In this document: positions 35,707 to 50,912 of the stretch, one piece after another
How the letters are laid out: each line of letters begins with the position of its first letter
Numbering within the stretch: the first letter of the stretch is position 1
NCBI GenBank assembly: GCA_947244325.1
Contig: CAMXJY010000003.1
Coordinates: 267 to 64,266 of the forward strand
Reading direction: 5' to 3'
Origin: an uncultured Clostridium sp.
GTDB lineage: Bacteria; Bacillota; Clostridia; TANB77; CAG-508
Length of the DNA: 64,000 nucleotides
Notes under the pieces: model-generated
Databases searched by the model: none
Seen by the model: only the letters and a program-made list of their open reading frames with translations
What the model was told of the DNA's origin: nothing
Position numbers and translations under genes: made by a program

Positions 35707-37011
35707 CTAATTCATATAGTCTTTTAATCTCTTACTTCTACTTGGATGTCTTAATTTTCTTAAAGCTTTTGCTTCAATTTGTCTTATTCTTTCACGAGTT
35801 ACTTGGAATTCTTTACCTACTTCTTCTAATGTTCTTGCTTTTCCATCTTCTAATCCAAATCTTAATTTTAAAACTTTTGCTTCTCTTGGTGTTAATGTAC
35901 TCATAACTTCTTCAAGTTGCTCTTTTAATAATGTATATGCTGCTGAGTCATGTGGAGCTGGTGATTCATCATCAGGAATAAAATCTCCTAAATGACTATC
36001 ATCTTCTTCTCCTATTGGTGTTTCTAATGAAACTGGATCTTGGGCTATTTTTTGAATTTCCATAACCTTTTCTACTGGTATTTCCATTTCTTCAGCAATT
36101 TCTTCTGGTGTAGGTTCTCTTCCTAAAATTTGAAGTAAGTGTCTTGATGTACGAATTAATTTATTTATTGTTTCTACCATATGAACTGGTATTCTTATTG
36201 TTCTTGCTTGGTCTGCTATAGCTCTTGTTATAGCTTGTCTAATCCACCATGTTGCATATGTGCTGAATTTATATCCTTTTTTATAATCAAACTTTTCTAC
36301 AGCTTTTATTAATCCCATATTTCCTTCTTGGATTAAATCTAAGAATAACATTCCTCTTCCAACATATTTTTTAGCTATACTTACAACTAATCTTAAATTT
36401 GATTCTGCAAGTTTTTGTTTTGCTTCTTCGTCACCTTCTAAGACTTTTTCAGCAAGTTCTAATTCTTCTTCAAAATTAAGTAGTGGTATTCTACCAATTT
36501 CTCTTAAGTACATTCTTACAGGATCATCAACACTAACGCCTTCTATGTTAACTAAATCAATTTCTTCAAGTTTAATATCTTCTACTTCATCTAAGTCCTC
36601 TATATCTGGTTCTAAGAAATCTTCATCATCTTTTAATACATTTACCCCTATTTCTTCAAAAGCTTCAAATACTTTATCTATTTGTTCAGGATTTGCCTCT
36701 CCAAGTTCTGCTGCTAATTCTCCATATGTTATTTTTCCTTTTTCTTTAGCTGCATTTACTATTTTTAAAAGTTTTTCTTTTTCTGTATCTTCTTCTCCAG
36801 ATTTTTTATCACTTTCTTTGTTAGCTTTCTTTGTATCTTCTTTTTTAGAACTTTCTGTATCTTTCTTTTTATCAGTTTCTTTTGACTTTTCTTCTTTTTT
36901 CTTAGTAGCTTTTGTCTCTTCTACTACTTCTTCTTTCTTAGCTTTTTTCTTTCTTGTAGGTTTTTCTTCATCTATAACTTCTTCTACTACATCTTTTTCT
37001 GTTTTTTTCAT
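35707..37011 (-). CDS. rpoD: RNA polymerase primary sigma factor sigma-70 (SigA/RpoD)
   Basis: A K/E-rich N-terminal region is followed by regions 2-4: [54 protein letters not shown] and the C-terminal [15 protein letters not shown]. Confidence 0.95.
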
Positions 37012-37027
37012 TTTTTTTATATACCTC

Positions 37028-38809
37028 CTACTTATTTTTAGCTAATTCTATTATAATATCACTCAATTCCTGTTCAAGCTTAGCTATTTCATCTTTTGTT
37101 AGAGAAGAACTATTTTCTAATGCCATTATAATTTCATTTTTCTTATTTGATAGTCTGTCTTTATTATAAATATTTATTACGTCTTCTATACATTTTTCTA
37201 CAGAATTTATTTCATAATCAGTTACTAAAATTTCACTTACATGTGATTGTATTTCTGTATCTTCAATATTTGCTATTGTTTGCACTATTTTTTCACTTTC
37301 TTCTGCTGTTGATTCTAAAATTTTTTCAAAAATCTTTTTATTCGTATCTAGCTTAAAATCGTCTAATGTTATATTAGTTACTATTGGTTCATAAGATTCT
37401 CTAAAATAATTTATAAGCAAATATATAAGCATGTTCTCTCTTTTTATTATGGCTGGACTAACTTCTTCTGCCTTTGGCTGTTTTATAATCGGTTTTACTA
37501 AAACTTTTTCATTTATATCTTTGTATGAAACTTTGTTTACTTCTGCATAAATTGCTTCTCGTGAAATATTATATTGATTAGCCACTTTATCAATATATAT
37601 TTCTCTTTCAATTTTGTTATCAACACTTGAAAGTACCTTTGTTATTTCCTTTAAAAATCTAATTTTATCATTAGCATTTTCAAGATTGTATTTATTTTTT
37701 AGCATTTTTATTCTAAATTCAACTAATGAAATAGCTTTTTCAATTAATAAATTAAATCTACCACTTCCATATTTTATAACATATTCATCTGGATCTTTTG
37801 CACCTTCCATTTGCAATACTCTTGCATCACAACCTTGTCCTTCAAGAATTCCTAAAGCCCTCATTATTGCTTCTTGACCTGCACTATCAGAATCATAACT
37901 TAATATTATTTGCTCACTATATTTTCTTAATAACCTTCCCTGCTCTTCTGTTAAGGCTGTTCCTAGTGATGCAACAACATTATCAAACCCTCTTTGATAC
38001 AGTGATATAGCATCCATATATCCTTCGACTAATATAATTCTTTTAGAATCTGATTGTTTTGCTAAGTTTAATGCAAATAAATGCTTCTTTTTTGAATATA
38101 CTAAGTTTTCATTAGAATTTATGTATTTTGCCATTTTATCATTATTTTCTAATTTTCTACCACCAAAAGCTATAACTCTACCATTTACTTCCATTATTGG
38201 AAACATCAGCCTTTTTCTAAATCTATCAAGAAAATCCCCTTTTTCCGTTTTATTTACAAGTCCAGTTGCTAATATTTCTTCATCTTTAAATCCTTGTGCT
38301 TTTAAATGTTTATATAATTCGTTATATTCTCCTGAATATCCTATTTTAAAAGCTTTTAAAGTTTTATTATCTAGCTTTCTTTCCTTAACATAGTCTTGTG
38401 CTATTTTTGCTAATGGTTTATATAACCTCTCGTGGTAAAAGATTGTTGCCTCTGCATTAATTTTATACATTCTATCTTTTAGATATTGTGTTTTATTAAA
38501 TTCTGTATTTTGTGATACTGGCAATTCTATTCTTGCACGTTCTGCTAAAATTTCTAAAGCTTCTTTAAATGAAACTCTTTCAATTTCACTAACAAATGTA
38601 AATACGTCTCCACCTTTATGGCATCCAAAGCAATGAAAATATTGCCTATCAGCCGAAACAGAAAAAGAAGGTGATTTTTCTTTATGAAATGGACATAATC
38701 CAAAAAAATTTCTACCACTTCTTTTTAAAGTTACATATTGAGAAACTACATCAACTATATCATTTGCTGATCTTACTTCCTCTTTTAATTCATCAGTGTA
38801 TTGAACCAT
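37028..38809 (-). CDS. dnaG: DNA primase
   Basis: The zinc ribbon is [13 protein letters not shown]...[11 protein letters not shown]. The TOPRIM domain carries EGYMDAISL and DSDSAGQ. Length is 593 aa, immediately upstream of rpoD. Confidence 0.9.
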
Positions 38810-40785: not shown

Positions 40786-41208
40786 TTAGAATGGTAAATC
40801 GTCATCAGATGAAGTAACTTGGAATTCAGCACTTTGTGTAACTGCCTCTCCAAATGTATCTTCAAAACTTCCTGAGCTTTCCCCATCTCTTTTACTATCT
40901 GCAAAATATGCTTCTTCAGCAACTACTTCTGTAACATAATGTTTTTGTCCTTGGTCATCATCCCAAGTTCTTGTTTGAATTCTTCCAACTATACCAACTT
41001 GTTGACCTTTTTTAAAGTATTTGCTACAAAATTCTCCAGTTTTACTCCAAGCTACAATATTTATAAAATCTGCTTGTCTTTCTTCACCTTGTCTTGCAAA
41101 TCTTCTATTAACTGCTAAACTAAATGAAGCTACTAGAGTATTGTTTGTTTGAGTATATCTTACTTCTGGGTCTTTTGTTAATCTACCCATTAAAATTACT
41201 TTGTTCAT
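40786..41208 (-). CDS. ssb: Single-stranded DNA-binding protein
   Basis: It has the OB-fold start MNKVILMGRLTKDPEVRYT and an acidic C-terminal tail ending DDDLPF. Confidence 0.95.
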   Translation of the reverse strand: MNKVILMGRLTKDPEVRYTQTNNTLVASFSLAVNRRFARQGEERQADFINIVAWSKTGEFCSKYFKKGQQVGIVGRIQTRTWDDDQGQKHYVTEVVAEEAYFADSKRDGESSGSFEDTFGEAVTQSAEFQVTSSDDDLPF

Positions 41209-42302: not shown

Positions 42303-42923
42303 TTAAATTACTCTTTTTATACTCTCTGATGCTTTCTTAAAAATATTATATTTATTTTCCTCAATATGATATAAATACCACAAATACACTATCAGTGCTA
42401 GAAGATATACATTTTTAACTTTAACTATTATAATACTATAAATAAAAGTAATTGCAAATAAAAAGCACTTACTAAAAACTATCATAAATTTATTTGAAGG
42501 TCCTATTCCTAAAATTACTCTCAAAATTTCTTTTAATATTTTTCCACCATCTAATGGCAAAATTGGTATAAGATTAAATATACAAATTGCTAAATTCGTA
42601 TATACTATTTTTTCATATTCATCTTTTAATCCACCTAAATACATAAAAATAAGTGCAATAAAAAAATTGATAAGTGGTCCTGCTAGATAAAATAATAGCT
42701 TATATATTAATTTATTTTTTCCATATGAATAAAATTCTAATGATACCCCTAATGGATTCAAATTTAATTTTCTTGGTTTTCCACCAATCATGATTCCTAC
42801 AAACAAATGAGCTAATTCATGAATTAATATGAATATAAAAAAAATTATGTATGTATCAATATTGTTTAACCATAAAAACAATATTAATACTGGAATTATT
42901 TTTAAGTTTATTTCTATTTTCAT
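42303..42923 (-). CDS. M50-family intramembrane metalloprotease (site-2 protease / SpoIVFB-like; short, no CBS domain)
   Basis: An HExxH motif (IHELAHLF) lies in the first TM. There are about 6 TM segments. It is immediately downstream of an M23 gene, as in spoIVFA-spoIVFB. Confidence 0.6.
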   Translation of the reverse strand: MKIEINLKIIPVLILFLWLNNIDTYIIFFIFILIHELAHLFVGIMIGGKPRKLNLNPLGVSLEFYSYGKNKLIYKLLFYLAGPLINFFIALIFMYLGGLKDEYEKIVYTNLAICIFNLIPILPLDGGKILKEILRVILGIGPSNKFMIVFSKCFLFAITFIYSIIIVKVKNVYLLALIVYLWYLYHIEENKYNIFKKASESIKRVI

Positions 42924-42934
42924 GTTTTGCCTTT

Positions 42935-43777
42935 CTAAAAACTTAATATTTGTAAGGGGTCTACAAATCTGTCATCTACTCTTATTTCAAAATGTAAATG
43001 TGGTCCTGTGCTATTTCCTGTATTCCCTACAGCTCCTATTTCTTGTCCTTGTGCTACAATTTGTCCCTCTTTTACAAATATTTCTGAGCAATGCGCATAT
43101 AGAGTAGTAACATTATTACATCTTATTTTTATATGTTTTCCATAATCTCCTTCATTTGATACAAGTGTTACTATTCCTTCCATAGAAGCTTTTATTCCTG
43201 TTCCTTTTGGAGCTGCTAAATCTACTCCTGTATGATATCCTGTTACATTTTGATATTCAGATTCTCTTGCTCCAAATCCAGAACTTACAACTGCTTCTAA
43301 TGGTTTAACGAAACTATATGCTGCTTTTAAATTATTTATATCTAATTGCATTTCATTCATAGAACTACTAATTTCTTGCACTGGTTGTTCTTGCGGTAAT
43401 TCTTCTTGTTGTTCTGTAATTTTTGTCTCTTGATTTTCAAGTGAACTATCTAATGCTGCCTCATTATTTTTCTCTTCTACACCATCTCCTTTTTCAGAAT
43501 CTTTCAAAAATTCAGTTATTTTTGCACTAATATCTACGTTATATTGTTTTATTTGTGATAAAAATTCCTCAGTAAATATATACTCTTTATTTTGAATAGC
43601 AAATACAAGAACTGCTAAATTAAACATTATTAATAAATGTAGTAAAAATCTATTTTTTAGACCACCTTTTTCTTTTGGTTCCTGTTTTTTCACTAAACCT
43701 AAATTTTGCCCATTTCTTCTATAATAGATTTCTTCTGCTCTTCTTATTTTTTCATCATCATTTAAAATTCTTTCCAA
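42935..43777 (-). CDS. Membrane-anchored M23/LytM peptidase (SpoIVFA-like position). The catalytic HxH is retained
   Basis: It has an N-terminal TM and an acidic linker. The LytM domain carries HTGVDL...GPHLHFEI. Confidence 0.7.
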   Translation of the reverse strand: MERILNDDEKIRRAEEIYYRRNGQNLGLVKKQEPKEKGGLKNRFLLHLLIMFNLAVLVFAIQNKEYIFTEEFLSQIKQYNVDISAKITEFLKDSEKGDGVEEKNNEAALDSSLENQETKITEQQEELPQEQPVQEISSSMNEMQLDINNLKAAYSFVKPLEAVVSSGFGARESEYQNVTGYHTGVDLAAPKGTGIKASMEGIVTLVSNEGDYGKHIKIRCNNVTTLYAHCSEIFVKEGQIVAQGQEIGAVGNTGNSTGPHLHFEIRVDDRFVDPLQILSF

Positions 43778-43905: not shown

Positions 43906-44217
43906 CTATAGCAAACATTTTCCTACAATATAAATAATCACTCCAACTACTAACATTATATTAATTGTTTTTGAGACTTTAATCTTTTTTTCTAACTCTT
44001 TTATTTTAAATTTTTCGTATTCTATATTTGATTTATTAAGTTTTTCATTTACTATTAATTCTGCTTCTTTAAAAATATTAATATTTTTATTTTCGCTTTT
44101 TTCGTTTTTAAGTTGATGCATTTTTACACCTTCTTTAAGTACTATAAACGCCTCTTCAATGACATTTGACTCAACATCTTTCAAAAAAATTATATTATTT
44201 AATTTATTAAGTTGCAT
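43906..44217 (-). CDS. Hypothetical protein with a C-terminal TM (103 aa)
   Basis: ORF only. Confidence 0.3.
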   Translation of the reverse strand: MQLNKLNNIIFLKDVESNVIEEAFIVLKEGVKMHQLKNEKSENKNINIFKEAELIVNEKLNKSNIEYEKFKIKELEKKIKVSKTINIMLVVGVIIYIVGKCLL

Positions 44218-44507
44218 ACTCTCTCCTAAAACTTTTCATTAAATTTATTTAATAAAATCTGACAATACTTTTTATTAAATATAAAATAAAAAAATAATAA
44301 TAAATTTGCATACATGTATAATTACTAAAAATCTAAGCATTTTTTACTAATTATATAATTTCCAAAAATATGTAAAATATGCAAGTTATAATAATTTTTA
44401 TTTTGAATACATTTTAATATATATTGATACTCACTTATATATTTTTATAAATATATTAAGTGCAAAACAAAAGTGAGCAATATTAAATTTGAAAGGATTT
44501 TATAACT

Positions 44508-44744
44508 ATGAATTACAAAAAAGGATTAGATTTTAAACATAAAGAAGTTATTAATATAAAAGACGGCAGACGTCTTGGATATGTTCAAGATGTAACTGCC
44601 GACTTTAAAACAGGAAATATAAAAGAGATTATAGTTCCTGGTAATACAAACTTTTTTAATATTTTCGCATCAGGTAGTGAACTTACAATTCCTTGGGATT
44701 CTATAAAAGTAATTGGTGAAGATATAATTTTAGTGGATTTTTAA
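44508..44744 (+). CDS. ymxH: YlmC/YmxH-family sporulation protein (PRC-barrel)
   Basis: It is 78 aa. KDGRRLGYVQDVTADFKTGNIKEIIVPG matches the YlmC/YmxH PRC-barrel signature. Confidence 0.7.
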   Translation: MNYKKGLDFKHKEVINIKDGRRLGYVQDVTADFKTGNIKEIIVPGNTNFFNIFASGSELTIPWDSIKVIGEDIILVDF

Positions 44745-44746
44745 GT

Positions 44747-45520
44747 TTACTTATACAATCTTTTCATATGTTCTAATGCTGTTTTCTCAAGCCTTGACAC
44801 TTGGGCTTGAGAAATTCCTATTTCATCAGCTACTTCCATTTGTGTTCTTCCTAAGAAAAATCTTTTATCTATTATCATTCTTTCCTTATCATTTAATTTT
44901 TTTAAAGCTTCATTCATAGTTATATTTTCCGCCCATAATTCATCTGTATTTTTCTTATCTTTTACTTGGTCCATAATATAAAGACTATCCGCTCCATCAT
45001 TATATACTGGTTCTTGAAGTGATACTGGATCTTGTATTGCATCTAAACTTAGTACAATGTCTTCTTTTTCTACATCTAATTCTTTTGCAATTTCTTCTAC
45101 TGTTGGCTCTTTTCCATTTTCTCTTGATAACTTTTCTTTTGCTTGCAAAACTTTATAAGCCAAATCCCTAACTGACCTACTTACTCTTACCATATTATTA
45201 TCTCTTAAATATCTTCTTATTTCTCCAATTATCATAGGCACACCATAAGTAGATAATTGTATATCTAAACTAGTATCAAAATTATCTATTGCTTTTATTA
45301 ATCCTACACAACCAACTTGGAAAAGGTCATCTGCATTTTCTCCTCTTCCGCAAAATCTCTGAATTACACTCAATACTAATCTTAAATTTCCATTTATTAA
45401 TTTTTCTCTGGCTTCTCTATCTCCTTCGTTCATCTTTTTAAATAGTTCTTTTGTTTCTTCTTGTGTTAATACTTGTAATTTAGAGGTGTTTACATTTGCT
45501 ATCTCAACTCTATTAATCAA
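44747..45520 (-). CDS. sigG: Sporulation sigma factor SigG
   Basis: NVNTSKLQVL...AREKLINGNLRLVLSVIQRF..RGENADDLFQVGCVGLIKAIDNFD...STYGVPMIIGEIRRYLRDN matches SigG nearly residue for residue. Length is 257 aa. Confidence 0.9.
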   Translation of the reverse strand: MINRVEIANVNTSKLQVLTQEETKELFKKMNEGDREAREKLINGNLRLVLSVIQRFCGRGENADDLFQVGCVGLIKAIDNFDTSLDIQLSTYGVPMIIGEIRRYLRDNNMVRVSRSVRDLAYKVLQAKEKLSRENGKEPTVEEIAKELDVEKEDIVLSLDAIQDPVSLQEPVYNDGADSLYIMDQVKDKKNTDELWAENITMNEALKKLNDKERMIIDKRFFLGRTQMEVADEIGISQAQVSRLEKTALEHMKRLYK

Positions 45521-45594
45521 AATAAAACCTCCTCTTGAAAATAATGTTATTTACATTATTTCCAAAAGAAGGCTATTTTATACTAAATTATAAG

Positions 45595-47598
45595 TTAATC
45601 TTCTTGAATTTCTGTTTGTTTTAATCTTAAATGTCCAAGTTCTTCCCATCTGTTATATGCCAAGTTTAATCTAAATAAAACTGTTGGTTTTGCACCAGCC
45701 CTATTTTTATCTACAACACATGCATAAAATCTAACATCTGTATCCTTTGGAACGTCTATCTCTGAGCATTTTTCAAATTGGTCAGTATCTGAATATTCAT
45801 ATTTATGAAGGCTTTGTCTGCTGATTTGTTTTATTAAACATAATGTATCTAAAACTTCTTTTGCAGTTTTACTTGCAGACATATCATTAATAGTTAAATT
45901 TACTGGTAATGTACTACTTTCCAATAACTGCATTGATGATGCTATAAATATTTTAAATTTTTGTGCTAAATTTGAAAGAATAGTTGCTGTTTTTTTAACT
46001 TCATCACTGTTACCAATATTAGCTGTATCAGCTTTTAAAGTATCATAGAACATATAATGTATTCCTTCTTTGTAATAGTAATTCATTATAATTTTTCTTA
46101 AATCATCATTAGTATGTTCTGTTATATGAATAAAGAAAATCGAATTATTTACTTGTGTATTTACCCATTCTGTTACTTTTAAAGTTTGTCTAAAATCACT
46201 AGAATTTTTTTCAAGTCTTGCTACATATTCCTCTTGTGATTCTCCATCTTTTCTAAGTATATATCCATTTTCATCACATTTAACTTTTTTATTTTTATCT
46301 GGTCTAAATTTAAGCTCTAAAAGTTCTCCTTCTGATATTTTTATTTTTTGACCATGAAGTTCTTGTATTTCAGGATTATTTAAAATTGTAGTTATCATAC
46401 ATAATTTCATTTTTTCTTCTGACATTTCATTTGAAATAATTAAAACTTTTTCTTTATGAATAAATGAAATATATGCTGCTAAGTTAATTGTAAACCTACT
46501 TTTACCAGAGTTTGAAGGCATTGCATAACACATTGTTTCTCCTCTTCTTAGTCCTTTAAACACCGTAGATAAAATATTAAATGGGATTGAAATACCATTA
46601 CTTAGCTCATTATCTCCTGCAAGTAAAAAGCTTGTTACATCTTTATTTAATCTTCCTTGACTAAGTCCAGTAGTAACTGTTATTTGTTCTAGTGCACTTT
46701 CAACTTCTTCTACTGTCATATCATCATATAATTCATAATTTTGTATCTCTAATATTTTTTGTCTTATTGCTGAAGTAGGTGCAATCATATAATTTTTCTT
46801 TAAAATAAATAGCTTTTTTAATTCAATATAAACATTTTCTAAATTATAATTTTTAGCCACTGCTATTTTTCTAACTTTTAATTTTAAATCATAAGTATTT
46901 GGTGTTTCTCTTGGTAATTGATATTTATCTTTTGCTGCTGCAGGAGCATAAGCCTCTCCATCTCTAAAAATTACAATTTTATATAAATTCATTAATTCAT
47001 TATCTGAAAAATGACAATCATCATATAAGAAATAAAATCTTGATATAGCTTTTGGATTATTAAATAATAACCCCAAATATATACATTCAAGTTCAATATC
47101 AATTAATTCATCTGGATATCCGTTTCCATCATCTTCTGAATCGTCATCATCTTCGTACTCTTCGTCTTCTTCTGTATCTTCATATTCCTCATCATCGCCA
47201 TCTTCGTACTCTTCGTCTTCTTCTATATCTTCATATTCCTCATCATCGCCATCTTCGTACTCTTCGTCTTCTTCTGTATCTTCATATTCCTCATCATCAT
47301 CATCTTCGTACTCTTCGTCTTCTTCTATATCTTCATATTCTGCATCATCGTCTTCGTACTCTTCGTCTTCTTCTATATCTTCATATTCTGCATCATCATC
47401 TTCGTATTCTTCGTCTTCTTCTGTATCTTCATATTCCTCATCGTCCTCGTACTCTTCATCTTCTTCTACATCTTCATATTCTGCATCATCATCTATTTCT
47501 TCTAATTCGCTCATATCTAGTTCTTCAATATCATCTTCTTCTACTTTTTTACGTTTCTTATTCATTTCTTCTTTTGAATCCAAAGTTATTCCCTCCAT
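45595..47598 (-). CDS. Divergent DnaB-family (RecA-like P-loop) helicase homolog with an N-terminal polyacidic EYED tandem-repeat domain
   Basis: Residues of about 36-160 form about 7 tandem 16-17-aa repeats (EYEDxEEDEEYEDDDA). The C-terminal part has a DnaB N-domain-like IELECIYLGLLFNNPKAI and a Walker-A-like AMPSNSGKSRFTINLA. It has ISNEMSEEKM (compare FSLEMS), ISRQSL (compare ISRSLK) and the C-terminal VVDKNRAGAKPTVLFRL (compare the VAKQRNGPTGTV motif). The usual Walker B aspartate is not obvious. Confidence 0.6.
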   Translation of the reverse strand: MEGITLDSKEEMNKKRKKVEEDDIEELDMSELEEIDDDAEYEDVEEDEEYEDDEEYEDTEEDEEYEDDDAEYEDIEEDEEYEDDDAEYEDIEEDEEYEDDDDEEYEDTEEDEEYEDGDDEEYEDIEEDEEYEDGDDEEYEDTEEDEEYEDDDDSEDDGNGYPDELIDIELECIYLGLLFNNPKAISRFYFLYDDCHFSDNELMNLYKIVIFRDGEAYAPAAAKDKYQLPRETPNTYDLKLKVRKIAVAKNYNLENVYIELKKLFILKKNYMIAPTSAIRQKILEIQNYELYDDMTVEEVESALEQITVTTGLSQGRLNKDVTSFLLAGDNELSNGISIPFNILSTVFKGLRRGETMCYAMPSNSGKSRFTINLAAYISFIHKEKVLIISNEMSEEKMKLCMITTILNNPEIQELHGQKIKISEGELLELKFRPDKNKKVKCDENGYILRKDGESQEEYVARLEKNSSDFRQTLKVTEWVNTQVNNSIFFIHITEHTNDDLRKIIMNYYYKEGIHYMFYDTLKADTANIGNSDEVKKTATILSNLAQKFKIFIASSMQLLESSTLPVNLTINDMSASKTAKEVLDTLCLIKQISRQSLHKYEYSDTDQFEKCSEIDVPKDTDVRFYACVVDKNRAGAKPTVLFRLNLAYNRWEELGHLRLKQTEIQED
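47118..47493 (-). repeat. In-frame tandem DNA repeat (period about 48-51 nt, about 7 copies) encoding the polyacidic EYED array
   Basis: TCTTCGTACTCTTCGTCTTCTTCT(A/G)TATCTTCATATTCCTCATCATC... recurs on the plus strand. Confidence 0.8.
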
Positions 47599-47687
47599 TT
47601 TTCAAATTTACTTATATTATCTCATTATTATGTAATTTTATTTTATCCTTAATTAATTTTATTTACAATATATTTAATATAAATGTA

Positions 47688-47747
47688 ATAAAAAGAAGTT
47701 CTCTATCAAATGTCTATATAACATTGATTTTGAACTTCTTTTTTATA
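47688..47747. terminator. Hairpin with flanking A-runs and T-runs downstream of sigE (AAGAAGTTC ... GAACTTCTT, 30-nt loop)
   Basis: A 9-bp perfect inverted repeat separates sigE from the DnaB-like gene. Confidence 0.45.
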
Positions 47748-47820
47748 AATTAAAAAACATTATGCCTAACTTATTTCATACTCTAGCTGTAACATATAAA
47801 GCTTTTATTTTCATACCACT

Positions 47821-48555
47821 TTAGCCTGTTTTACTCATAATTTCTTTTTTCATTTTATTCATAATTTTTTTCTCTAATCTTGAAATATAACTCTGAGATA
47901 TTCCAAGCATATCCGCTACTTCTTTTTGCGTCTTTTCTTTTTCATTAGTTTCTATTCCAAATCGTAATTGCATAATATATTTTTCTCTTTTATCTAGTTT
48001 ACTTATTGCTATTTTAAGTAATGACATATCTACTTCATCTTCAATAGCTTTTGAAGTTATATCATTATCTGTTCCTAATATATCTGATAACAATAATTCA
48101 TTTCCATCGCCATCTTTATTTAATGGCTCATCTATTGAAACTTCATTCTTGATTTTTGTATTGCGTCTAAGCTGCATTAGAATTTCATTTTCTATACATC
48201 TTGACGCATATGTTGCAAGTTTAATATTTTTGTCTACGTTAAAGGTATTTATTGCTTTCATTAAACCTATTGTTCCAATTGAGATTAAATCTTCAAAATC
48301 TATTCCTGTATTTTCAAACTTTTTAGCTATATATACAACAAGTCTCAAATTTCTTTCTACTAATATTTGTTTTGCATCTTCATCATTTAACATTAATTTT
48401 TGAAGCAATTTTTCCTCTTCAATTATGTCAAGAGGTGGTGGCAATGTTTGACTTCCTTTTATATAAAAAACAGGAAATTTATCCGTAACATCTCTTCTAA
48501 AATACTTTCCTATAATTTTCTTAAATCTACTTTTAAGCATTTCTAGCAAATTCAT
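47821..48555 (-). CDS. sigE: Sporulation sigma factor SigE (pro-sigma-E)
   Basis: The pro-sequence is followed by [12 protein letters not shown]...[61 protein letters not shown], nearly identical to B. subtilis SigE. Confidence 0.9.
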
Positions 48556-49444
48556 TTTTCTTTCCCTCCTTATTTAAAATATCCAAACCAATTAGACTTG
48601 TATATAAATTATTTTTAGATAACTTACCATCATAAATTCCTATTAAAACATCGTCTCTAATACATTCCTCTTCACCATATACTTTTATGTAATCTGGTTT
48701 AAAACCTATTAACAAGCCATTATCATTTCCTAAAGATGAAAACGGTATTAACTTAAATTTATATGAATGTACACTTTCTGCTTCTATCCATTTTCCATTT
48801 AAAATAGCTTTTATATCTTTCAAAATTTCTTTTTGCACTATTCCTTCTAAGCTCTCTTTTTCAACTATAATTACATCTGTTTTACTTATTGGCTCTTTTA
48901 ACAAATTTCCAGTATCAATCATTGTTTTTATTTTTCTATTTTTTCCATTATAGAAAATTTCTAAGTCATATATCATAGATTTTTTACTTAACCTACTTTT
49001 TATAGTTTTTTCTACTATAAATATTACTAAAAATCCCACTCCTCCTGCCAAAACTGCAATTTTTAATGGATAAGTTCCTACAAAATGATTACTTTCTATT
49101 ATTATATTTTGTGGTTTAATAAAAAATAACAACATAAATGCAATTCCACCAAAAGTAAATGACACTAAATAGAAAAATACTAATTGCCTTAATAATTTCT
49201 TTATTTTATAATCTTTAAATGCTATCAACATCATCAATATAGATATTAGTACTTTTAATATTATGCTTGAGATTAAATTAAATTCTATAATATAATTTAA
49301 AATTGCAAATATTCCACCTATAATACTAGATATCATGATTTTTATTGTACTAATTCTTGATTTACTTATTATTGCTGTTGATAAAATTATTATGTAATTT
49401 AAAATAATGTTTTCAAAAAGCACTATATCCAAATATATAGTCAT
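48533..49444 (-). CDS. spoIIGA: Sigma-E processing peptidase SpoIIGA (membrane aspartic protease)
   Basis: It has five N-terminal TM helices. The C-terminal domain has an IDTGN-type aspartic motif ([11 protein letters not shown]). It overlaps the sigE start, as in spoIIG operons. Confidence 0.8.
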
Positions 49445-49699
49445 TTTTCATTTTATTTTGCCTTAAAATATTCTATTAATAAAATTCGGAAATCTTTTAT
49501 TAGAATATATAAAGAACTTTACTAATAATTAACTTGTATTTTATTATTTTAAAATTGGCAAATCCTTTCTTTAAATGTCTATATTTATTTTAGTACTATC
49601 TATATAAAAATACTGTCATTTTCTAGGGGAGAAAAAAAGAAATAATCTACATTTTCTTTTTAGTGTTGACAAAATTATTATATTTTTATTTATAAAATG

Positions 49700-49735
49700 C
49701 AAAAAAAGAGTGCTAACAAACTTGTTAACACTCAA
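49700..49735 (-). terminator. Rho-independent terminator of ftsZ (GAGTGCTAACAA / TTGTTAACACTC)
   Basis: A 12-bp stem with one mismatch is followed by a T7 run on the minus strand. Confidence 0.7.
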
Positions 49736-49754
49736 CTTTTAAATTCTTAATATA

Positions 49755-50912
49755 TTATTTATTTCCTAAACCTTTATTTTTTCTTAAAAATGTAGGAATA
49801 TCTAAATCTCCATTAGAGTCATTTGATGATGAGCTTGATGAGCTAACTGAAGATATACTGCTTGTATTTCTCTTTCTCCAAGCATCTGCTACTATATTCT
49901 CATATTGTGAAGATGATGTTGTTGTAGTTGTTTGTCTTTTTTCTTCTTCTTTTTCAAATCCAGTAGCTATAACTGTAATTTGAATTTCATCTCCCATTGA
50001 ATCATCTATTACTGTACCAAAGATTATATTTGCTTCTGGGTCTGCACTTCTTTGTACTAATTCTGCTGCTGTATTTGCTTCATGTAATCCCATATCGCTT
50101 CCACCAGTGATATTGATGATTATTCCTCTTGCTCCTTCTATTGATGTTTCTAATAATGGACTTTGAATTGCTTGTTTTGCAGCATCTTCTGCTCTATTTT
50201 CTCCACTAGCACAACCAATTCCCATATGTGCCATACCTTGATTTAACATTATTGTTCTAACATCTGCAAAGTCTAGGTTAATTACACCTGGTACAGATAT
50301 TAAATCAGAAATACCTTGAACACCTTGTCTTAAAACATCATCTGCCATTCTGAAAGCTTCTATCATTGATGTTTTTCTATCTATTACTTGTAGTAATTTA
50401 TCATTTGGGATAACTACTAAAGTATCTACTTTACCTTTAAGGCTTGCTACTCCACGTTCAGCTTGAGCTAATCTTTTTTTACCTTCAAAAGTAAATGGTT
50501 TTGTTACAACACCTATTGTTAAAATTCCCATTTCTTTTGCTGTAGAAGCTACTATTGGTGCTGCACCTGTACCTGTTCCTCCACCCATTCCGGCTGTAAC
50601 AAATACCATATCTGCTCCTTTTAATACTTCTGCAATTTCTGCTCTACTTTCTTCAGCAGCTTGAGATCCGATATCTGGATTAGCTCCAGCTCCTAAACCT
50701 CTTGTTAATTTTTCACCTATTTGAATTTTAGAATTAGCTTTTGACTCATTAAGAGTTTGTCTATCTGTATTAACTGCTATAAATTCAACATTTCTTATTC
50801 CTGCCTCTATCATTCTGTTTACTGCGTTGTTTCCAGCGCCTCCAACTCCTATAACTTTAATTGTTGCTGTTCCATCCATCATGTAGTTTAACTCATTCTC
50901 ATCCATTATCAT
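49755..50912 (-). CDS. ftsZ: Cell division GTPase FtsZ
   Basis: [17 protein letters not shown] and the tubulin signature [10 protein letters not shown] are present, with a Ser-rich C-terminal linker. Confidence 0.95.

Follow-up and report, generated by a model that had tools for sequence, protein, structure and literature searches.

The locus described here raises two questions: what kind of protein is encoded by the gene that separates sigE from sigG, and does its position among sporulation sigma factor genes say anything about its function? The locus lies in a stretch of 64,000 nucleotides (nt) from an uncultured Clostridium sp. of the GTDB order TANB77, family CAG-508 (assembly GCA_947244325.1, contig CAMXJY010000003.1, positions 267 to 64,266 of the forward strand), and the whole of this stretch is called the window. 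Within it, a 667-amino-acid (aa) open reading frame (ORF), here named X, occupies positions 45595..47598 of the minus strand between the genes for SigE and SigG. An earlier description of the DNA, made from its letters and referred to below as the sequence-only reading, had postulated that X is a divergent DnaB-like protein turned non-replicative, possibly a regulatory or DNA-mimicking P-loop protein of the sporulation cluster. The present analysis leads to a different explanation, which we consider fairly probable: X would be a chromosomally fixed, phage-derived paralog of the DnaB family, an accessory ring helicase with a polyacidic tail. Its parts are as follows.

45595..47598, minus strand: coding sequence of X, 667 aa from the ATG at 47598, or probably 662 aa from the TTG at 47583, with the stop codon at 45595-45597.
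47592..47596, minus strand: Shine-Dalgarno sequence GGAGG of X, overlapping the annotated ATG; ATGGAGGT(A/G)nTTATTTTG is conserved.
47119..47520, minus strand: polyacidic Glu/Asp/Tyr array, residues 27-160 of X, predicted to be disordered.
46609..47121, minus strand: helical domain resembling the DnaB N-terminal domain, with linker, residues about 160-330, helical in an AlphaFold2 (AF2) model (predicted local distance difference test score, pLDDT, 80-93).
45598..46596, minus strand: RecA-like DnaB C-terminal domain, residues 335-667, with the motifs from Walker A to the arginine (Arg) finger.

The sequence-only reading had seen a gene with an upstream region of its own between sigE and sigG, and this holds, the interval that it marked out being X plus a 222-nt upstream spacer. 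Within X, the TTG at 47583 is likely the true start codon; it stands eight nt after the conserved GGAGG. In one related locus (L013), the corresponding sequence is GTGGAGG followed by a GTG start, so the start at ATG is not conserved.

That X belongs with the DnaB helicases is indicated at several levels. It matches the Pfam profile DnaB_C (PF03796) with 31.9 bits (gathering score 27), over residues 335-404 only, and phrog_19, a 'DnaB-like replicative helicase' family, with E 2e-24 over residues 83-655. Its scores of 29.5 bits against TIGR00665 (cutoff 385.25) and 26.1 bits against NF004384 (cutoff 525) are low, and the former profile aligns residues 167-404 of X to its positions 5-246. The Pfam profile search gave no match in X to the DnaB N-terminal domain (PF00772), against which the relative P0256 reaches 21.6 bits, below the gathering score of 23, and in a sequence search of the PDB with X the sole similarity was to Geobacillus DnaB, limited to its Walker A and H1a region (E 0.01). 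A model of residues 150-667 was built with AF2 (mean pLDDT 75.3; predicted template modelling score, pTM, 0.56), and Foldseek aligned it with DnaB structures (4nmn, 4esv, 2r6a, 8a3v, 6qel and others) over about 510 columns with probability 1.00 and E-values of about 1e-14 (6e-15). The matches to phage DnaB-like helicases in BFVD were equally good, and DnaB or DnaB-like helicases make up all or nearly all of the 50 best structural matches in the PDB and of the 50 best viral ones, with both domains aligned. The model reaches TM-scores of 0.4-0.5, most likely because its two domains are oriented differently to each other. Among the structural matches is G40P of Bacillus phage SPP1 (PDB 3bgw, E 2e-12), a DnaB-like hexameric phage helicase; it differs from X in being much nearer cellular DnaB, in being phage-encoded and in having no acidic array. 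In the predicted structure, X outside the array thus appears as a full-length DnaB fold, and the similarity first noticed by eye is borne out by the DnaB_C score above the gathering threshold and by structural matches over both domains.

The nearest relatives outside the family are found in phages. The best phage match of X is GP100 of Geobacillus virus E3 (E 1e-28), a member of phrog_19 that aligns over 97% of the 508-aa C-terminal part of X with 25% identity (tblastn) and, by BLASTP, over 361 columns with 29% identity (E 2e-35), the Walker A, H1a, Walker B, H3 and KNR(G/A)G motifs being matched. Both proteins score weakly, about 31 bits, against Pfam DnaB_C. GP100, however, has 457 aa and no acidic extension, and in the E3 genome it sits in a replication module of helicase, primase, exonuclease and PolIII alpha, whereas X is solitary and chromosomal, with an insertion of about 32 aa in its RecA domain (roughly residues 430-460) and an N-terminal extension that ranges in the family from 10 to 518 aa. 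A search of 1.84 billion representatives of 50%-identity clusters gave 388 matches to X at E <= 1e-3 and 67 at E <= 1e-30. So few matches place the canonical DnaBs out of reach and mark the family as small and sharply separated. Its core consists of four full-length clusters (57-92% identity). The next full-length relatives, about 515 aa long and 27-44% identical to X, are nearer E3 GP100 than X is: P0257 is 36% identical to X and 39% to GP100, and P0266 is 29% identical to X and 32% to GP100. Beyond GP100, these relatives are most similar to helicases from large phages of Bacillus, Lactococcus, Enterococcus and Brevibacillus, and on the viral contig L093 a protein 44% identical to P0257 is encoded directly upstream of a primase. 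Sequence comparison shows the nearest outgroups of X to be replicative helicases of large Firmicutes phages. On L093 (1410..2540 and 5992..8557), it was also observed that a PurZ-like gene (phrog_1211, 2-aminoadenine pathway) lies upstream of the E3-type helicase-primase pair, with a few genes in between.

At present, X is not carried by phages. It was found on only three IMG/VR contigs, each time at the contig end, and in the one of the three that was annotated (L092), X stands on the host side of a prophage integrase. No att-like repeats were found flanking X in the window, and a mobile element was rejected on these grounds, the matches on viral contigs being at contig ends and the L092 copy being host flank outside the prophage. 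The defence models of PADLOC-DB 2.0 gave no match to X at E <= 1, and a known anti-phage defence protein was rejected as well.

The catalytic site argues for an active enzyme. Fourteen residues, which include the motif positions, are invariant in 73 homologs with 58-95% identity: G365, K366, S367, N390, E391, M392, Y518, D519, T520, Q557, K631, N632, R633 and G635. Of these, GKS 365-367 belongs to Walker A, E391 is the H1a residue, D519 the Walker B aspartate and Q557 the H3 residue, and K631 and R633 form the Arg finger. In the BLASTP alignment with the E3 helicase, SNSGKSR is paired with SNEGKSR, NEMSEE with NEMDEE, YMFYDTLK with YVFYDTLK, SSMQL with ASFQL, and DKNRAGAK with EKNRGGEK. The motifs after H1a were mapped through this phage helicase, whose own match to Pfam DnaB_C runs from Walker A through H3, and through predicted secondary structure, not directly onto cellular DnaB; the strands of the AF2 model would put the motif residues in the standard DnaB order. 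The sequence-only reading had called the Walker A deviant and found no clear Walker B aspartate. The first statement is right for the first position of the motif, which departs from A/GxxxxGK[ST] (M-PSNS-GKS), and not for the rest, which conforms. The second has to be given up, as the aspartate is present in FYD519TLK and invariant. As for the H1a-like, Arg-finger-like and KNRAGA motifs that it listed, E391, K631 and R633 are invariant and DKNRAGAK pairs with the phage sequence. For the 508 C-terminal codons of X, the ratio of nonsynonymous to synonymous substitution rates (dN/dS) against five relatives is 0.075-0.164; for the flanking genes it is 0.04-0.09 (sigE), much as for X, and 0.005-0.07 (sigG). 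These ratios show, at the level of codon sequence, that X is under purifying selection. Because the catalytic residues are invariant and dN/dS is this low, X is most likely a working NTPase and helicase and not a degenerate regulatory P-loop protein, as had been proposed.

If X is an active DnaB-type helicase, it could be the replicative helicase of its host or a second one beside it. Evidence on this point comes from locus L034, in which an X protein 67% identical to that of the window, and bearing an EEYEEIEDD array, is encoded; 1.3 kb downstream of its gene lie rplI and the gene for a 446-aa DnaB that scores 595 bits against TIGR00665 and 638 bits against NF004384. This is the only locus in which X lies next to rplI, and there dnaB follows. 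Because L034 has X as well as the canonical rplI-dnaB pair, X is very probably a paralog rather than the housekeeping helicase, and an identity with housekeeping DnaB was rejected on this ground. With the L034 DnaB as query, canonical DnaBs were found by the thousand (those listed, 120 in number, share 80-100% identity with it), and each of the five that were looked up lies in an rplI-dnaB-tilS context, with gdpP and ftsH also visible in L081. Compared with DnaB (B. subtilis DnaC), X has, by its predicted structure, the same two-domain fold, and it has the same order of catalytic motifs, and its Walker A/H1a region aligns in sequence; unlike DnaB, it carries a polyacidic N-terminus, scores 29.5 bits against a cutoff of 385 and, in L034, stands beside a true DnaB. 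On these comparisons X is very probably not the housekeeping replicative helicase, and we infer, strongly, that a canonical dnaB is present alongside X in the genome of the window. The word 'non-replicative' in the sequence-only reading is supported in the sense that X is probably not the housekeeping enzyme, in view of its score far under the TIGR00665 cutoff and of the canonical pair beside it in L034. In the databases, one member of the family is annotated as 'hypothetical protein' (NCBI) and another, P0045, as 'replicative DNA helicase' (JGI).

The N-terminal array is as real as it had been described. Of the 134 residues from 27 to 160, 57 are Glu, 42 Asp and 14 Tyr (84%), with 14 'EY' motifs, and in the DNA a 51-nt unit is repeated in tandem 7.2 times with 88% matches (47144..47494; Tandem Repeats Finder score 502). 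Such a composition and repeat are far beyond chance. The array changes quickly. X proteins whose C-terminal part is 95% identical to that of the window, and which are probably all of a single species, vary in total length between 631 and 686 aa, and between species the N-terminal extension varies from about 10 to 518 aa. Its repeat unit varies as well (EEYED-type in the window, EEYEEIEDD in L034, DDFEEV in L018, DFELPMDE in L031), and in several lineages of the family the extension is essentially missing or is not acidic. In 15 of the 25 loci of the window's clade, the locus edge truncates the X ORF within the array or shortly ahead of it, so metagenome contigs appear to break there, and X is probably often truncated or mis-started in the annotation of metagenome-assembled genomes (MAGs). 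A cut at the locus start was seen in L003-L005, L007-L010, L012, L014, L017, L019 and L021-L023.

Acidic C-terminal tails are known from the T7 gp4 helicase-primase, T7 gp2.5 and bacterial single-stranded DNA-binding protein (SSB). By analogy, the array may be likened to these tails, including the 'DDDIPF' tails of SSB, in that acidic runs with aromatic or hydrophobic residues are attached to a replication protein. However, the known tails are short and C-terminal and use a free terminal carboxylate, whereas X has its array internally, near the N-terminus, as a tandem repeat of 130-500 aa. The arrays of L030 and L031 repeat 'DFELPMDE', and the SSB of the window (40786..41208) ends in a canonical DDDLPF tip. 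Mimicry of the SSB tail was rejected as a general property of the array, the 'ELPM' motif that resembles the SSB tip being confined to the sub-lineage of L030 and L031.

How far the position of X between sigE and sigG is conserved was assessed on GTDB contigs, one genome per species, in which 477 stretches encode relatives of X. Loci were counted on synteny in the best 80 of these 477. The labels of the 80 loci are all uncultured Clostridia, Clostridium, Lachnospiraceae or Bacillota and include Candidatus Scatovivens, a genus placed in order TANB77, family CAG-508 (PMC13106387). In 26 of the 80 (L001-L025 and L069), sigG follows X, and sigE precedes it wherever the contig reaches that far; in a neighbor-joining tree, L001-L025 are monophyletic and form one genus-level clade, with L069 elsewhere. 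The other 54 loci have varied contexts, such as ligA-folD-dprA-X-spoIIID, X-udg, dinB-X, X-topA and spoVG-X-rplI-dnaB (the names udg, dinB and topA were read from the sequences, without a domain search). A conserved partner gene for X was rejected: clustering of the ORFs of the 80 loci revealed none, neighbours being shared only within sub-clades. Linkage to sigE and sigG is thus not conserved across the family, and the functional tie to the sporulation sigma cluster that had been suggested finds no support, with X in other places in 54 loci. Judged from gene order, sigE-X-sigG looks like a local, lineage-specific state and not a functional link. Some members of the clade (L002, L006, L007, L024 and L025) have an extra 0.6-3.9 kb between X and sigG, and the insert of L002 includes a 74-aa ORF that is also present in the contigs L082-L084 of the same species. 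Such extra DNA suggests that the sigE-sigG interval behaves as a permissive site or insertion hotspot. In L053, a partial X-like fragment (3603..3806; about 68 aa of a 97-aa ORF align, with 41-50% identity) was seen 1.8 kb downstream of a full-length X.

The genes around X in the window are readily recognized. On the minus strand, the run is ftsA, ftsZ, spoIIGA, sigE, X, sigG. SigE (47821..48555; NF006158, 362 bits) and SigG (44747..45520; NF006071, 428 bits) score above their NF cutoffs, the sigG of the window being intact, and spoIIGA (48533..49444), upstream of sigE, reaches 201 bits with its NCBIfam equivalog, just below the cutoff of 209.55. The GC content along X, 0.24-0.34, is like that of the neighbouring genes. 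Between sigE and sigG the following signals were found.

47690..47743, minus strand: terminator-like hairpin after sigE, with a 12-bp outer stem and an inner stem, then a U-run.
47663..47688, minus strand: imperfect inverted repeat TTACA-N16-TGTAA, overlapping the -35 element of the X promoter.
47640..47668, minus strand: sigma-A-like promoter of X, TTGTAA, 17 nt, TAAAAT (9 of 12 consensus matches).
45527..45583, minus strand: sigG leader boundary, with a sigma-F-like promoter and a hairpin pairing with the ribosome binding site (RBS), in the 74-nt gap between X and sigG.

The hairpin that had been noticed after sigE folds with -18.6 kcal/mol (z = -4.2), which 0 of 200 shuffles equalled, and is followed by a U-run, so that it is real; in relatives, reading of the unfolded raw sequence by eye revealed a GC-rich or long stem with a T-run at the same place. 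Downstream of it, the -35 TTGTA and the -10 ATA(A/C)AAT of the X promoter are conserved in the sigE-X-sigG clade. For X homologs elsewhere, the upstream region often contains a near-consensus TTGACA-17-TATAAT, and at least 11 of 12 matches to the sigma-70 consensus were found upstream of 23% of the homologs; shuffled sequences reach this level in 0.9% of cases and random windows in 2.5%. Reading of the region upstream of X and of its alignment by eye revealed no motif of the sigma-E, -F, -G or -K type, no scan having been run. The inverted repeat over the -35 element, TTACA(A/T)TT(A/G)TATTAAA...TTGTAA, is present in the window and in L001, L002, L011, L015, L016 and L025, with invariant flanking columns in a nine-sequence alignment, and may be an operator.

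sigG has signals of its own. Its sigma-F-like promoter consists of GTATA (45579-45583), 15 nt and GGAAATAAT (45555-45563), and GTATA-N15-GGAAATAAT agrees with the sigma-F consensus of B. subtilis. It is conserved in those clade members that were examined, with GAATA in L013. The leader hairpin (45527-45573; 20-22 bp) sequesters the GGAGG of the sigG RBS by pairing and has a T-run after it; 6 of its 22 predicted pairs have compensatory changes across nine species. In B. subtilis, a hairpin-type arrangement of the same kind makes sigG read-through transcripts untranslatable. The arrangement in the window is alike, but it is placed after the inserted gene, and by analogy the hairpin would also stop or silence read-through from X. 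With a clade-conserved promoter that is sigma-A-like and a position between the sigE hairpin and sigG's own sigma-F-like promoter, X appears, on consensus matches, to be a transcription unit of its own, as the sequence-only reading implied, and not one with a promoter of sporulation type. None of the Rfam families reached its gathering score in 44000-50000.

Taken together, these results can be accommodated in the following model. X, with its helical N-terminal domain, linker and RecA-like C-terminal domain, would most likely be an ATP-driven hexameric ring helicase. It would be transcribed alone, probably in vegetative cells, under a housekeeping promoter of sigma-A type and with insulation on both the sigE and the sigG side, and a promoter and insulation of this kind argue for an accessory helicase in ordinary chromosome transactions rather than a regulator of sporulation. 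X may work beside the canonical DnaB, for example in replication restart, repair or recombination. The array would then form an intrinsically disordered, rapidly expanding and contracting negative brush on the N-terminal collar face of the ring. Its action would most plausibly be electrostatic, with the array serving either as an autoinhibitory mimic of DNA or of an acidic tail or as a docking site for basic DNA-binding partners.

Several observations weigh against this model or against parts of it. The alignment behind the AF2 model is shallow (22 sequences, at least 69% identity), its pTM is 0.56 and its TM-scores are 0.4-0.5; hhalign and hmmsearch --max align X with cellular DnaB over about 76-85 residues (Walker A and H1a). 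Sigma-A was assigned from hexamer matches in a genome with 25% GC, which in the window's clade are only 9 of 12, and the function proposed for the array is purely inferred. A search of the 64-kb window with a fragment of Geobacillus DnaB found no second DnaB, and the MAG accession prefixes of the canonical DnaB hits (five looked up) matched none of the sigE-X-sigG MAGs. The lack of a second DnaB in the window would fit a lineage in which X, as a phage-type DnaB that displaced the cellular one, is itself the replicative helicase; X appears to be core and single-copy in 477 small genomes, its catalytic motifs are intact, and the automatic annotation of P0045 reads accordingly. Such a displacement is very unlikely, given that L034 carries both genes and that gut metagenomes and MAGs of the same kind contain many canonical DnaBs with about 80% identity to the L034 one, all in rplI-dnaB-tilS context (the source organisms are not shown there). 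To our knowledge, all bacteria studied keep a canonical DnaB. A further observation that runs counter to the model is that some X copies adjoin sporulation genes in three contexts, namely sigE/sigG, spoIIID (L061, L068, L075 and L080) and spoVG (L034), which leaves a link to sporulation some probability.

Adjacency of this kind bears on two sporulation hypotheses. The original proposal, a degenerate, non-replicative P-loop regulator or DNA mimic embedded in the sporulation sigma cluster, would have X expressed in the mother cell or forespore, where it would affect sigE/sigG or forespore DNA. It could draw on the retention of the sigE-X-sigG position in 26 species-level loci, on the family members next to spoIIID or spoVG and on the possibility that a polyacidic array mimics DNA. 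Yet the ATPase residues, Walker B Asp included, are all invariant, contexts are unrelated in 54 of 80 loci, and several relatives have no acidic extension at all; the sigma-A-like promoter is conserved, with no motif for the sporulation sigma factors seen by eye (no scan was run), in the window a terminator-like hairpin precedes X, and sigG has its own sigma-F-like promoter in all clade members examined. In addition, the species of L002 has an intact X despite a split spoIIGA. We therefore regard this proposal as improbable. An active helicase devoted to a sporulation-specific DNA transaction on the forespore or mother-cell chromosome, under a sigma factor not recognizable by its consensus, would be compatible with the intact catalytic site, with the recurrence of X beside sporulation genes in three arrangements and with the additional regulation suggested by the inverted repeat over the -35 element. 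It seems equally doubtful, given near-consensus sigma-A promoters in many lineages and contexts that are mostly those of housekeeping genes (ligA, folD and dprA and, by reading, udg, dinB and topA). Furthermore, small-genome spore-formers have many sporulation genes, which makes chance adjacency likely. Finally, X might be a remnant or passenger of a mobile element, or an anti-phage component such as a decoy helicase, with no role in host DNA metabolism. Phage helicases are its closest relatives, its genomic position varies, its array evolves fast, as in arms-race proteins, and three matches lie on contigs flagged viral. Against this, no phage, integrase or defence neighbours accompany X, the L092 copy is outside the prophage, PADLOC and the search for att-like repeats gave nothing, dN/dS is 0.08-0.16, the GC content is like that of the neighbours, and the phylogeny follows the lineage; a mobile or defensive X is unlikely.

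Within the favoured explanation, that of a phage-derived accessory helicase, one may go further and suppose that a phage-captured helicase has become the core, lineage-defining second ring helicase of the CAG-508/TANB77 gut Clostridia, at work beside canonical DnaB, with its hypervariable arrays acting as a tethered mimic of DNA or of the SSB tail, and with co-option for handling the chromosome in sporulation possible in the Scatovivens clade. In this version, which is a long shot, arrays of up to about 500 residues per subunit, or about 3000 per hexamer, would gate loading or recruit basic DNA-binding partners.

X is an uncharacterised subfamily of DnaB-type helicases, and literature searches that paired DnaB with sigE/sigG, or were directed at domesticated DnaB-like helicases or at Scatovivens, brought up nothing on the protein. 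That hundreds of small genomes keep a second, phage-derived DnaB-type helicase under purifying selection implies that its role in DNA metabolism is not trivial, and current annotation hides this role. Since the 477 carrier genomes are all uncultured gut MAGs, every conserved oddity in them is a lead to their biology. The arrays are of interest in themselves, being among the longest tandem acidic tracts on a bacterial replication-type enzyme, differing in length among near-identical proteins and breaking metagenome assemblies. For sporulation biology the lesson is mainly cautionary: the spoIIGA-sigE-sigG block can tolerate insertions, provided that sigE is terminated and that sigG keeps its sigma-F promoter and RBS-sequestering hairpin.

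Some minor observations concern the neighbouring genes. After sigG come ylmC/ymxH on the plus strand, a pair encoding an M23 peptidase and an M50 protease, rpsF and ssb. The M23/M50 pair (42303..43777, minus strand), just downstream of sigG/ylmC, resembles spoIVFA-spoIVFB, and dnaG-rpoD (35707..38809, minus strand; dnaG at 37028..38809) lies another 6 kb away. In the species of L002, whose X is 94% identical to that of the window, spoIIGA is split by a frameshift into ORFs of 150 and 130 aa (L002 3667..4540), with sigE, X and sigG intact. The split recurs in at least four separate contig records (L002, L082, L083 and L084) and marks either a pseudogene or another frameshift site.

The sigG gene itself carries the same 1-nt insertion in five species-level MAGs (L006 at about 8887, L009 at about 2348, L014 at about 1982, L021 at about 2363 and L024 at about 11695), within ...ACA TAT C GGA GTn CCn ATG. 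In the 0 frame, TAT CGG is followed by stops, and the +1 frame restores the GVPMIIGE of sigma region 2. The CGG codon is expected to be rare at 25-30% GC, by an estimate of codon usage and not from counts. Synonymous differences around the insertion argue against a shared assembly error, and the site is, on its sequence, a candidate for programmed +1 frameshifting.

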